The position numbers and the translations under genes were made by a program. A stretch of DNA of 64,000 bases from contig JAWMAR010000025.1 of NCBI GenBank assembly GCA_036785375.1, positions 2,542,001 to 2,606,000 on the forward strand, written 5' to 3'. Positions 6,955-63,192 of this stretch are shown here, one piece after another (positions within the stretch are counted from its first letter, which is position 1; every line of letters begins with the position of its first letter). The stretch comes from Leucoraja ocellata. Lineage: Eukaryota. The notes beneath the pieces are model-generated. The model made no database searches and was not told the origin of the DNA. It saw nothing but the letters and a program-made list of their open reading frames with translations.

Positions 6955-9900
6955 GTATGTGTGTGTTTGTATGTGCATGTTGCTGCCAACTCTTAGTTCA
7001 AATTCTTCTCAACCGTCTCTCCCAGTAATCCCAATTTTGCTACCATCGCATGCTGTGCAAAACCTCATTCGTTTGGTTAGCAACCAATGCAAATTCTTTA
7101 CCCGCTAGGTAACCAGATGCCACCCCGCCCTTCAAGTGGACAATCTGATGGAATTCTTCACCCCACCATGAATCCATCTGCGATGGGGCAGGACCGAGGT
7201 GAGCAGAGTCAATTCATTCACTGAGAGTGAAAACCAATAATAAATACACTTGGTAGAGCATGCCACAGGTATCATCTTGGATGCTGCAAGAAAATTGTGT
7301 ACTAACAAATTTCAGGGCTGAAAGGATTTTCTTTTTCTGGCTAATTCTTTTTTTTACTTTTGTGGGATGGTACAGTTTTAGCTACCAGTTGCTCTCTGGT
7401 ACCTGTTCGTTGTAAGAATTTCAATCATTGTTGCTTCAATGCTTGCTATACGGGAGTCTATTCATCTTATCGTGTCTTTGGCAGTTCTTTGGTGTAATCG
7501 AAAAACTTAATTCCACTGACTTCTTCCCTGCATGCTCAACTATTTATTATTCCTTTCAAAAGTGCAAAAGTCCATGCCTAAACAAGTGAGATCATTTAAC
7601 TAACTGTTTAAGAAGGAACTGCAGATGCTGGAAAATCGAAGATACACAAAAATGCTGGAGAAACTTAGCGGGTGCAGCAGCATCTATGGAGCGAAGGAAA
7701 AAGGTAACGTTTCGGGCCGAAACCCTTCTTCAGACTGGTGGGGGGAGGCGGGGAAAAGAAAGGGAAAAGGAGGAGGAGCCGAGGGCCCTCCCCGCCTCCC
7801 CCCACCCCCCATCAGTCTGAAGAAGGGTTTTGTCCCGAAGCATTGCCTATTTCCTTCGTTCCATAGATGCTGCTGCACCCGCTGAGTTTCTCCAGCATTT
7901 TTGTGTACCTTCAGTTAACTAACTATTGACCAGGCACTGAACTAGCAATCTTTCTGATATGAGACTCGTTCACATTCTGAATAAACTCAGAACTTTGTGG
8001 GGTGTGAATGGGGGCATAGCATGTTAATTGTCAAACTAATCTATAAATATGGGCTAACAGTCGGGAAATGTTCAAACCTATCACATTGGGCAATTTAATT
8101 TAATATATTGTTATCTGGATTTATTTTTAACAGGCGTAGGTAGATGAGACAGTGAAGAAGGCATTTGGTATGATTGCCTTCATAGGCCAAGGCATTGGGG
8201 ACAAAAGTTGGGATATTTTGCAGCTAGGCAAAGCTTTGGTCGGGCTACACTTGGCGTATTGTGTACATTTCTGGTTGTTACACTGCAGAACAGCAGTGGT
8301 AGCATTCTATGCAAGCAACAAATTTCACAGTGCCTTGTCACATGTGACAATAAAGTATTCCATTCCATAACGTATTCTATTAGACAGAATGGAGAAGAAA
8401 TTCACAGGATGCTACCTAGAATGGAGCACTTTAGAGTGGCACGGTGGAGCAGCAGTAGAGTTTCTGCCTTACAGTGCCAGGGACCTGGGTTCAATTCTGA
8501 CTACGGGTGTTTGTCTATACTGAATTTGTGCGTTCTCCCTATGACCGCGTAGGTTTTCTCCAGGTGGTCAGATTTCCTCCCACATTCCAAAGACGTGCAG
8601 GTTTGTAGGTTAACAGGCTTCTGTAAATTGTCCCCAGTTTGTAGGATAGAATGTACAGGGATCGCTGGTTGGCATGGACTTGGTGGGCCAAAGGGTTTGT
8701 TTCCACACTGCATCTCTAAAACTAAAAACCACCTAAACTGACGATTTCCACTGTTTAGGGCAAAGGAGCAATATTGGATTGTAGCTGCCTGCAGCTCCTC
8801 CCCCTAAATTGTAAATCGTCATGACTTAGAAATGTATCACCATTTCTTTATTATCAATGGATCCAATCACTGAAACTCCCTACCAAGTAATGCAGTGGCC
8901 ATGCCTTTAGCTGTGTGGACCTCAGTGGTTCAAAATATTGACACTACTGCCTTGACAATAATTAGGAATGTTGGTAAGGTGCTCCTCATAACTTTCACAG
9001 TGAGATGTGACTCTGCATTCACCTATATCCGGTTTTGATATAATTCTTCTTTTTCACTTCTTAACAGGCTATTTGCAGAGACCTCCCCAACTGCCTCAAT
9101 ACAACTCCCCACAAACAGGGTCAGCACTGTCCCCACGTCAGTCATCTGGGAGCCAGATGCATGCTGCAATGAGCCCATATCAGCAGAATAACTCTGGAAA
9201 TTATGGACCTCAAGGCGCTCAGTACGCACCTCAAGGTGAGCTTCATGTTTTGTGCGACAAATATGAATGGTAGAGTTGAAACTTGTTGAAACATTGTGAA
9301 TTAATGCAATTCTCTTTGGACTGTAAGATGAAAAGGTGCTTAATAGATGAGCTGCTTGTTTTCTCAGATATCAGCATGTTTGCTATAAAAACAAAGACTT
9401 GCAGCCTTCTAGAATTAGTGGTGAGCAACAGTTTTAAAGGAATTAATAAAATCATAATTTATTTAAAAAGTATTGGAGAAATTAATGGGATGAAATGACA
9501 ACAGATTTCCAGACATAAAATGCTGGGGTAACTTAACTACAGGCAGTATCTCTGGAGATGCTTTAGAGTTTAGAGATATAGTGTGGAAGAATTTGTTCAA
9601 ATTTACAAGATGACGAATAGCTATTGGCAGCTCAGGTGCCAAAAAGTGGTAATTTAATTGACTAAGACTAATTCAGTTATCATGAGTTTCTGTTGCCCTA
9701 ATACCAAACAGTTGAATCACATTTTATCCTTTAAATCAGCATTGAAGGGTTGAATTGAAACTGGATAATTCAGATCGCAGAGTGTATGCTTTAAACTAGA
9801 AGGTCGCAAGTTCAAGTCTGTTCAGATGGTGTGTGATTTTTTTTTTAAAATTAAGCGGTATGGGATCAGGACTTAAGTGGACTTAAATTAGAGAATCAGC

Positions 9901-61500: not shown

Positions 61501-63192
61501 TGCTCTTATACAATTCCAGCCTTTTATGCATTCTCAATTTCCGTTACTCCCGAAGGGAAACAGACTGGGCCATTGTTAGAGGAGAGCTTGATTACATTCA
61601 TTTTTAACTTTAAGAACTAAGACCAGTATTTTGTGAATGAGGAATTACAAATGATGAGGCGCCCAGGTAAATAAGCCTGGTTTCAGGCAGAACTGCCCCT
61701 TGTACGGGCTCCTCCTCCTCCCTTTTTCCTTCCTTCTCCCCCCCACACCCACACCAGTCTGAAGAAGGGTTTTGGCCCGAAACGTCGCCTATTTCCTTCG
61801 CTCCATAGATGCTGCTGCACCCGCTGAGTTTCTCCAGCATTTTTGTGTACCTTTGCCCCTTGTACTCTACCTTGTTGACCGAGCTGGACTGAAGCGAATC
61901 AGTCAATTGCAGTGCGATGCACTGTATGTGTCAGCAGCAAATGGGACCTGCGTGGGGCAGAGAATTGGACCCAAAGTGAAACGGGTTTCTATCACTCCCA
62001 GAACTGCAGCTCGTGTTGTGCTGGCTCAGTGGTTGGAGAGCGAGTAGTGATCAGACAGAATGTGGCTTACGATCAAGGGAGTAAAGTTTGCTTTCCTTAA
62101 CTGGGCTGTGATGGACCTTAGGTACACAAAAAAGCTGGAGAAACTCAGCGGGTGCAGCAGCATCTATGGAGCGAAGGAAATAGGCAACGTTTCGGGCCGA
62201 AACCCTTCTGTTTCTTCCTCCTTTGCATGCCCCTCACCTTCAGAGAGGGAGAGGCAGTGCATTTGGGAGAAATTGTTTATTGGTCATTCGACCTGGTCAT
62301 ATAGGTTAAAGTTTCATCAGTTTCCAGCACTTTAAAACAAAATGTACTCTTTTCTTTTTCAGATAACTCTGGTGGGTCGGGTTATCGACCGCCACCTCGA
62401 ACAAAGGAGGTGTTGATCAATGGACAGACAGTCAAACTCAAATACTGCTTCAGCTGCAAAATGTTCAGGCCTCCACGAACATCGCACTGCAGCCTCTGTG
62501 ATAACTGTGTGGGTGAGTGTTGGTTGAGGGCAGACCCAAGGGCATGGGGCTGGATAAAGATACAAGCAGCATGTCATTGCAGTTTCTGGGGGTTGGCATG
62601 TAATTGGAGTTTCTGAGGGTTGGGTGTGAACTGGTTCCTAAGTGGGCAGGGGATTTGGTGGGACCGGTGCCATTGGGTATAGGCTTGTGGGAGATGGTGG
62701 CCAATGTAAATTGTCACAATTCCCCAAAGTCATTGTGATCACGAAACCGAGTTTAAAAAGGGGCGCACAGTGAGTTGGATGCTGTTGGTCACCGAGGGAA
62801 AGATCAGTCCGAGGACGTTATCATTTTGGGCATTTCTGCAAGGACACCCAGTCGACTGGATTCCCAACTCTTAATTATTATCCACCGGTCTGTTATGAGA
62901 TCATCTAGTGGGATTAAGAAGCAGATGGGTTGGACCATCTCTGCCAGATCTCTGAGGACTGGAAAACGGATTGTGGTTGTTTCAGCCCAGAATTGAAATC
63001 CCTAAGAAGAGGTGTATCTTGCTGTGCTAATGTGAATCTTTGTCCATCTTACAGAGCGATTTGATCACCACTGTCCTTGGGTCGGAAACTGTGTTGGGAA
63101 AAGGAACTACAGATTTTTCTACATGTTTCTGTTGTCGCTTTCCTTTCTAACTGCTTTCATTTTTGCCTGCGTGATAACTCACCTTGCACTCC
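58304..63192 (+). CDS. ZDHHC18: ZDHHC18 palmitoyltransferase, 3'-partial; first 4 coding exons
   Basis: MNVCEYRQI...[70 protein letters not shown]; adjacent to PIGV. Confidence 0.92.
58400..58423 (+). repeat. (CAG)8 coding microsatellite (polyQ)
   Basis: Pure CAG run in ZDHHC18 exon 1. Confidence 0.95.
58637..58778 (-). mobile_element. Short hammerhead/terminal-repeat element with 13-bp TSD
   Basis: ggggatgtgatgt at 58624-58636 and 58779-58791. Confidence 0.85.
59884..60553 (+). mobile_element. CR1-clade LINE 3' end
   Basis: Nearly identical to 47930-48547; ends in ttctatgtttctatg. Confidence 0.92.
61082..61242 (+). CDS. ZDHHC18: ZDHHC18 exon 2
   Basis: cag|CTGTCC...ATAG|gtgaa; [17 protein letters not shown]...[11 protein letters not shown]; 161 bp. 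Confidence 0.94.
61706..61853 (+). mobile_element. Short hammerhead/terminal-repeat element with 12-bp TSD
   Basis: tgccccttgtac at 61694-61705 and 61854-61865; core at 61759-61786. Confidence 0.85.
61759..61786 (+). ncRNA. Minimal type I hammerhead ribozyme motif
   Basis: CUGAAGA A GGGU UUUG GCCC GAAAC GUC. Confidence 0.68.
62363..62512 (+). CDS. ZDHHC18: ZDHHC18 exon 3
   Basis: cag|ATAACT...GTGG|gtgag; [26 protein letters not shown]; 150 bp. Confidence 0.94.
63055..63192 (+). CDS. ZDHHC18: ZDHHC18 exon 4 (DHHC motif)
   Basis: cag|AGCGAT...CTCC|gtaag; [22 protein letters not shown]; 138 bp; not in the ORF track. Confidence 0.95.

Follow-up and report, generated by a model that had tools for sequence, protein, structure and literature searches.

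Six short non-coding units dispersed over a 64,000-nucleotide (nt) stretch of the Leucoraja ocellata genome (contig JAWMAR010000025.1, positions 2,542,001 to 2,606,000; the whole stretch is hereafter called the window) are genuine, separately inserted copies of the pseudo-long terminal repeat (pLTR) of a Penelope-like element (PLE). We read them as solo pLTRs and give about even credence to an origin in which the reverse transcriptase (RT)-endonuclease of the intact parent element primed on the leader pLTR of an RNA beginning just before the hammerhead ribozyme core. An independent retrozyme family is not supported.

Unit 1 (7609..7914) is a head-to-head inverted dimer of pLTR arms, each with about 50 nt of 3′ untranslated region (UTR). 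Only its minus arm has the 3′ tail, and there the hammerhead motif is complete (core at 7733); the plus arm has a mutated core (7817). A 10-bp target-site duplication (TSD; left copy 7596-7605 on the plus strand, right copy 7915-7924) encloses the dimer, with 3 extra nt preceding the unit. Unit 2 (18521..18714; 14-bp TSD, 18507-18520/18715-18728) is also an inverted dimer, from an older pLTR subfamily. Unit 3 (40557..40679, plus strand; 17-bp TSD, 40540-40556/40680-40696) is a solo pLTR with tail whose first base is the first base of the core. Solo pLTRs on the minus strand are unit 4 (57187..57292; 12-bp TSD, 57175-57186/57293-57304), which is tail-less with its core at 57283 and a few extra 5′ bases, and unit 5 (58637..58778; 13-bp TSD, 58624-58636/58779-58791), which has the tail and a 5′ end 14 nt upstream of the core (58764). 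Unit 6 (61706..61853, plus strand; 12-bp TSD, 61694-61705/61854-61865) comprises a tail-less pLTR plus 53 nt of 3′ UTR, with the core at 61759. Direct repeats flank all six units at the lengths first described (10-17 bp), and the chance of a direct repeat of at least 10 bp so placed was 0.0004 (5000 random sites in the window). Unit 3 lies in another repeat, and in two paralogues of that repeat within the window (60412-60482 and 48421-48491) the flanks are joined around a single, diverged target copy, showing the empty site. Target-primed insertion is supported.

The units align to the pLTR over their whole length, end to end. Units 1, 3, 4, 5 and 6 are 86-95% identical to the pLTR of the intact parent, 85-95% identical to that of a truncated element at 46266 and only 74-80% identical to that of a second truncated element at 55385; the nearest relative of unit 2 is an older-subfamily copy at 3057..3551. 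The homology to the terminal repeats of the 46266 and 55385 elements, proposed in the preliminary description, was confirmed by alignment, more weakly for the latter, and derivation of the units from a Penelope-like terminal repeat is supported. ARAGORN predicted 0 tRNA genes in the window and the Rfam search returned no tRNA family, in agreement with the reported lack of a tRNA head. An identity as tRNA-derived short interspersed nuclear elements (SINEs) was rejected, as there is no tRNA-like head with Pol III boxes and the entire unit aligns to the pLTR. The six units are a selection from about 25 pLTR anchors within the window, where additional solo pLTRs were seen at 62120-62209, 55102-55207, 979-1100, 21122-21216 and 36995-37119.

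A complete minimal type I hammerhead motif was taken to consist of the core (CUGAnGA, whose first C is offset 0 in all positions below), helix II and a 2-bp helix I. This motif is complete in three of the six units (the minus arm of unit 1, unit 4 and unit 6), so the earlier characterization as ribozyme-bearing holds for these but not for two damaged copies, unit 3 without the 5′ strand of helix I and unit 5 with both helices impaired, nor for unit 2, from which the core is absent. Because Rfam gave no hammerhead at E ≤ 1, the assignment is a descriptor-style match to the motif of PMC4209133; the Rfam matches that did occur for the units were artefacts, caused by the hairpin of unit 1's inverted repeat. 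The parent pLTR also carries the minimal motif by this match, and its activity is a prediction. Helix I spans only about 2 bp, and the region folds no better than its shuffles (z = −0.6).

The intact parent was found at loci L061 and L062, where units of 3985 bp stand in tandem and an open reading frame (ORF) of 1246 codons specifies RT and GIY-YIG endonuclease. This frame contains YIDD, a C-x4-C-x2-C linker, IY-CxxC-YIG and two downstream His (CCHH). RVT_1 matched it with E = 1.5e-6, at a score just under the Pfam gathering cut-off; Pfam GIY-YIG gave no match on the frame, and the endonuclease assignment therefore rests on a reading of motifs by the criteria of PMC8557442. A sequence search of PDB returned no relevant match. 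A single ORF with RT followed by a C-terminal GIY-YIG with CCHH is the arrangement of endonuclease-positive (EN+) PLEs, whose architecture was also apparent in tandem or partial-tandem pLTRs, inverted truncated copies and an optional 30-40-nt tail. Judged by its CX2-5CxxC linker, the parent is probably a Neptune/Nematis-type PLE (PMC8557442). Within the tandem, the stop codon is followed by a 120-nt pyrimidine-rich UTR ending in TCAGT, then by the hammerhead, the tail and an ORF start at about +165. Frames of more than 1200 codons occur at many further genomic places. One 57-mer has at least 18,199 exact occurrences in the 3.44-Gb assembly, and three subfamily patterns located 3′ of the hammerhead occur 15,388, 6,514 and 10,648 times, counts that exceed the true number of insertions because the assembly holds duplicated segments. 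On contig C1, many insertions recur with identical flanks (e.g., L116-L119, L087/L089 and L109/L110), pointing to segmental duplication or redundant assembly. A DNA-similarity search of the genome with the unit was uninformative, its words being too common.

The ends of copies were determined in a sample from contigs C1 and C2 only, collected with patterns that all lie 3′ of the hammerhead. Removal of duplicates by flank identity left 205 of 248 arms (120 plain, 69 inverted and 16 running off the fetched DNA); the same procedure reduced another sample set from 237 to 186 and then 181 rows. Among the 136 non-inverted copies, 54 (about 40%) begin within the 17 nt from −13 to +3; the flanking 51-nt stretches hold 5 (upstream) and 20 (downstream) starts (p = 1e-27). 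The pile-up is present in every subfamily (23/49, 19/41 and 12/46), with alignment ends at −7 to −13 in part reflecting chance or palindromic extension. A further 62 of the 136 reach upstream of −13, over a continuous range to more than 1.4 kb. Copies end at two 3′ sites, about +92 and about +128 (the PLE ‘tail’), used by 22 and 19 short copies and by 12 and 4 long ones, and the position of the 5′ pile-up is the same whichever 3′ site was used. TSDs of at least 8 bp flank 33 of the 54 short copies (median 13), compared with 3 of 112 in a displaced control. Because of the sharp 5′ pile-up, the short copies are more than the tail of a continuous truncation distribution; purely continuous truncation, which the preliminary description had named among the outcomes that would overturn it, does not describe 54 ends within 17 nt. 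The predicted ribozyme-cut site shows no enrichment of 5′ ends (3/20, p = 0.53), and ribozyme cleavage was rejected on this count: the ends of the short copies are not produced by it.

The boundary acts on the first crossing of a pLTR and not on the second. In 40 places where a pLTR lies upstream of an ORF start (the top-scoring 40 of 1996 candidates, all of the youngest subfamily), none of these upstream pLTRs begins at −13 to +3; 35 run past this site and 5 stop at +80 to +119. The contrast between 54 stops and 62 passes on first crossing and 0 of 35 stops on second crossing is significant (Fisher p = 2e-8), also when counted per array (0/29, p = 2e-7) or for the youngest subfamily alone (p = 2e-4). 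The absence of stops on second crossing excludes a sequence-intrinsic stall of the RT. A simple picture in which full-length copies end at a transcription start site (TSS) at the pile-up was also rejected, with 0 of 40 beginning there. The five ORF-start copies ending at +80 to +119 (L244, L250, L361, L364 and L370) terminate near the priming sites, which one turn of a circular template might bring about.

Inverted copies are strongly sorted by length: 68 of 76 inverted pairs are short-short, 8 are long-long and none is mixed (0/200,000 shuffles). Exactly one arm bears the tail in 69 of the 76, and palindromes within stem II or at the start of the core are where most junctions lie. No head-to-tail array exists among the six units. 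Outside the window, rare short tandems were observed at L153, L137 and L304. At L137 and L304 a short copy is preceded by the leader and ORF start, and both passes stop between −2 and +5; the template must hence have borne an ORF start behind the pLTR, and the structures resemble what a return jump to the same RNA template would leave. At L153/L252 (contig C1, about 13,751,370-13,751,950), 292-bp units, about 2.3 in number, follow one another head to tail with identical junctions; each unit consists of the end of the 3′ UTR, the hammerhead pLTR and the ORF start, giving a retrozyme-like array from the young element. Comparable spacings, of 299 bp at three places on C9 and of 277 bp on C107, mark candidate tandems.

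Comparison of short and long copies, over an alignment of only about 92 columns, argues against two lineages. The commonest haplotype, identical to the intact parent at the scored sites, includes 24 short and 32 long copies, and most other haplotypes are mixed, one having 13 short versus 1 long. Monophyly of the short copies was rejected by the approximately unbiased (AU) test (p = 0.0002; 103 short versus 92 long rows). Short and long labels change 33 times on the tree versus 35-47 times in 30 shuffles, a mild clustering; since the changes fall slightly under the shuffles, subfamilies differ in their short-to-long ratio. A candidate short-only variant (at first 7/31 versus 0/18) was discarded when resampling showed it to be long in 4 of 29 arms, compared with an overall 64 of 205 (p = 0.08). 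Haplotypes and the AU test show short copies scattered among long ones, one of the outcomes that the preliminary description had said would refute its separately propagating retrozyme-like family; the ends lying off the ribozyme cut and the incomplete motif of half of the units likewise fail to support that proposal.

The RNA data covered, from three raw runs and a single set of contigs, contain related copies and gave signal on both strands with a step in depth at the hammerhead base, which we read as embedded copies. Depth declines smoothly towards 5′, and neither a start site nor a pile-up of ends was seen in the runs, whose libraries are unsuited to small circles. One contig from the RNA runs joins a short unit head to tail, again from libraries ill-suited to small circles. 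Reads of all runs contain 32-34-nt duplications in the stem II region of the hammerhead (L061:4966-5014), fitting short template jumps near the 5′ boundary.

The preferred origin by leader priming supposes an RNA that would start shortly ahead of the hammerhead core, around −2 to −5, a position suggested by the pile-up. Its 5′ end would most simply be a pLTR-internal start at TCAGT, a sequence that we take to resemble an initiator. The RT would prime on the leader pLTR and copy only 90-135 nt to the 5′ end of the RNA; fold-back or twin priming on one template may yield the inverted dimers, and long copies and partial tandems would come from another template, multimeric read-through or circular RNA, that has no end at this spot. 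Such a two-template reading fits the Anolis PLE, in which RT initiates internally at two tail sites, downstream ORF sequence is needed and hammerhead cleavage is dispensable in vitro (PMC11167929), and the internal promoter and TSS within the pLTR of Penelope and Chlamys (PMC2377424, PMC8557442). Several points weigh against it. An RNA 5′ end at the pile-up was not seen, in libraries unsuitable for the purpose; a TSS of the full-length mRNA predicts full-length copies starting there, and as 0 of 40 do, an added assumption is needed, namely that 3′-pLTR priming on linear monomers is rare, with the ORF-start sample itself drawn from the youngest subfamily. The 5′ ends spread from −6 to 0 and no clear cap-derived G is found among them, fold-back or extras copied from the flank account for many of the junction bases, and the correlation between arms of inverted pairs is expected from fold-back alone. 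In D. virilis, moreover, the TSS is not at the core but upstream of an intron of 75 bp, the end of which maps to helix I (PMC2377424, PMC4209133).

The main rival dispenses with a special RNA 5′ end: on a long RNA, the RT would stop at the base of a hammerhead bound by its own complex, as in telomerase, and then fold back or integrate, later passes over unbound pLTRs going unstopped. We consider this possible, if rather improbable. It accounts for a pile-up irrespective of the 3′ start (22 versus 19 short copies), for the 0 of 35 stops on second crossing and for fold-back junctions at the hairpin, and telomerase RT is the sister group of PLE RTs (PMC8557442). Arms stopping independently would, however, give mixed long-short pairs, of which there are 0 among 76, though fold-back would couple the arms too, and the structure at which the RT would halt has the 2-bp helix I and shuffle-like folding (z = −0.6) described above. 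Plain random 5′ truncation by a low-processivity RT, which is most improbable, draws on the 62 of 136 copies extending continuously to more than 1.4 kb and on the smooth 5′-ward fall in RNA depth, but as sole explanation it is refuted by the pile-up: 17 nt contain 54 ends, the adjacent 51 nt upstream contain 5, and both 3′ sites share one 5′ point.

An independent lineage of short RNAs, SINE- or retrozyme-like, in which solo copies are transcribed and remobilised in trans, would explain the discrete 5′ end and the very high copy number, and the mild tree clustering (33 label changes versus 35-47), the haplotype with 13 short versus 1 long, the variant that is long in 4/29 versus 64/205 arms (p = 0.08) and the RNA contig with a head-to-tail short unit all lean its way. 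We nevertheless judge it unlikely, given the rejected monophyly (AU p = 0.0002), a commonest haplotype with 24 short and 32 long copies and ends that are off the cleavage site (3/20). Tail-less solo copies, furthermore, cannot regenerate a tail, which is nonetheless present in 19 of the 41 TSD-flanked short copies, and solo copies lack the downstream ORF sequence that the Anolis element needs for priming (PMC11167929). The polypyrimidine tract and CAG before the core could instead be a 3′ splice site, the short copies deriving from spliced RNA; the sequence is acceptor-like, and in D. virilis the end of the intron has been mapped to the helix I 5′ end (PMC4209133). Short copies share no common upstream exon, however: extras between TSD and core measure 0-28 nt and are mostly templated by the flank or the element, the 24 short copies without a near TSD have few distant repeats (31-80 nt; ≥450 nt for 10-12-mers) and no exon-transduction pattern, and no such skip joint is among the RNA joints listed, which makes a splicing origin quite unlikely. 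A bolder extension of the leader-priming origin, which we advance with considerable reserve, is a two-template PLE life cycle: linear RNA from the hammerhead base would give ‘strong-stop’ pLTR insertions, and circular or multimeric RNA, possibly formed by hammerhead cleavage and ligation, would give all long copies and partial tandems, the 292-bp L153 arrays being retrozymes in the course of birth. If true, this cycle would explain the lack of ORF-bearing ends at the site and the 5 of 40 stops near the priming site after one turn.

The PLE copy at 46266..47384 (plus strand) is 5′-truncated and frameshifted, retaining the RT thumb, the Cys linker, a GIY-YIG remnant, the 3′ UTR and the pLTR (hammerhead core at 47261), with no RT core; that at 55385..56416 (plus strand) is a 5′-truncated copy of a more distant subfamily, with the GIY-YIG/CCHH region open at 55837-56214 and a mutated pLTR core (56324). 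Both are about 1.1 kb, begin in the RT thumb and are RT-less, non-autonomous truncations. A second discrete 5′ end at their start was rejected, since 4 of 5 loci with that match extend further upstream. The older-subfamily copy at 3057..3551 (minus strand) is also 5′-truncated. The 46266 element is nested in an older pLTR copy (46250-46265 and 47385-47460) with an imperfect duplication of about 10 bp, and nested insertion into pLTRs occurs also at L010 and L262. The 3′ parts of another retroelement lie at 47750-48547, 59880-60552 and 40455-41033, the last enclosing unit 3; by eye they resemble the RT C-terminus of a long interspersed nuclear element (LINE), and the 47750 frame had no Pfam match. 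Host exons at 15957-16340, 27785-28609, 32821-34518 and 52363-53622 encode ARID, BAF250_C (ARID1A-like) and PIG-V mannosyltransferase, an ARID1A-PIGV neighbourhood that presumably agrees with vertebrate synteny.

The units resemble the solo pLTRs of metazoan EN+ PLEs (Cervera & de la Peña 2014, PMC4209133) in the minimal type I motif, a single additional base following the core and a palindromic pair in helix III's place. That survey reported thousands of dispersed single motifs and opposite-strand pairs 100-700 bp apart, few of them in full elements, and called the dispersed copies probably truncated PLEs; the fixed 5′ boundary, the TSDs and the second-pass asymmetry described here are absent from its available text. 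Two 3′ ends 30-40 nt apart, a tail on one end only, inverted 5′-truncated copies, partial tandems, variable TSDs and, at the C-terminus, a GIY-YIG with CCHH are shared with other PLEs (Frangieh 2024, PMC11167929; Craig 2021, PMC8557442). Unlike those, as far as their available text goes, the present element carries a Neptune/Nematis-type linker, CX2-5CxxC, that Poseidon lacks (PMC8557442); its ORF begins downstream of the tail, and the hammerhead base is where about 40% of its non-inverted copies end. With non-LTR retrozymes (Cervera & de la Peña 2020, PMC7229834; Li, Clavereau & Pollet 2026) the units have in common that they are non-coding and pLTR-related, with a type I hammerhead and larger TSDs, dispersed monomers having been described there too. 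Retrozymes are head-to-tail repeats with a hammerhead, usually canonical, in each unit and are processed to circles (PMC7229834), whereas among the six units there are only monomers and head-to-head dimers, their motif is minimal and often incomplete, and they constitute no lineage of their own; they contain neither a head-to-tail array nor a consistently complete hammerhead (3/6 motifs), and 5′ ends in the wider sample are not concentrated at the cut (3/20). The 2026 preprint (10.64898/2026.07.22.740005), with one cartilaginous fish in its sample, already derives retrozymes and dispersed monomers from PLE pLTRs.

The finding refines known PLE biology and defines no new element class; the units behave like abortive or leader-primed PLE insertions. 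In the open-access literature searched, we found no report of a fixed 5′ boundary with second-pass read-through. The observation is of value as a genomic readout of the PLE mechanism, taken from an intact and very young element whose copies number in the tens of thousands. Given a sharp 5′ boundary that applies on the first but not the second pLTR crossing, a single protein and a single RNA would suffice to test two questions directly: at which point PLE RNA begins, and whether circles are the source of long copies, as proposed in 2014.

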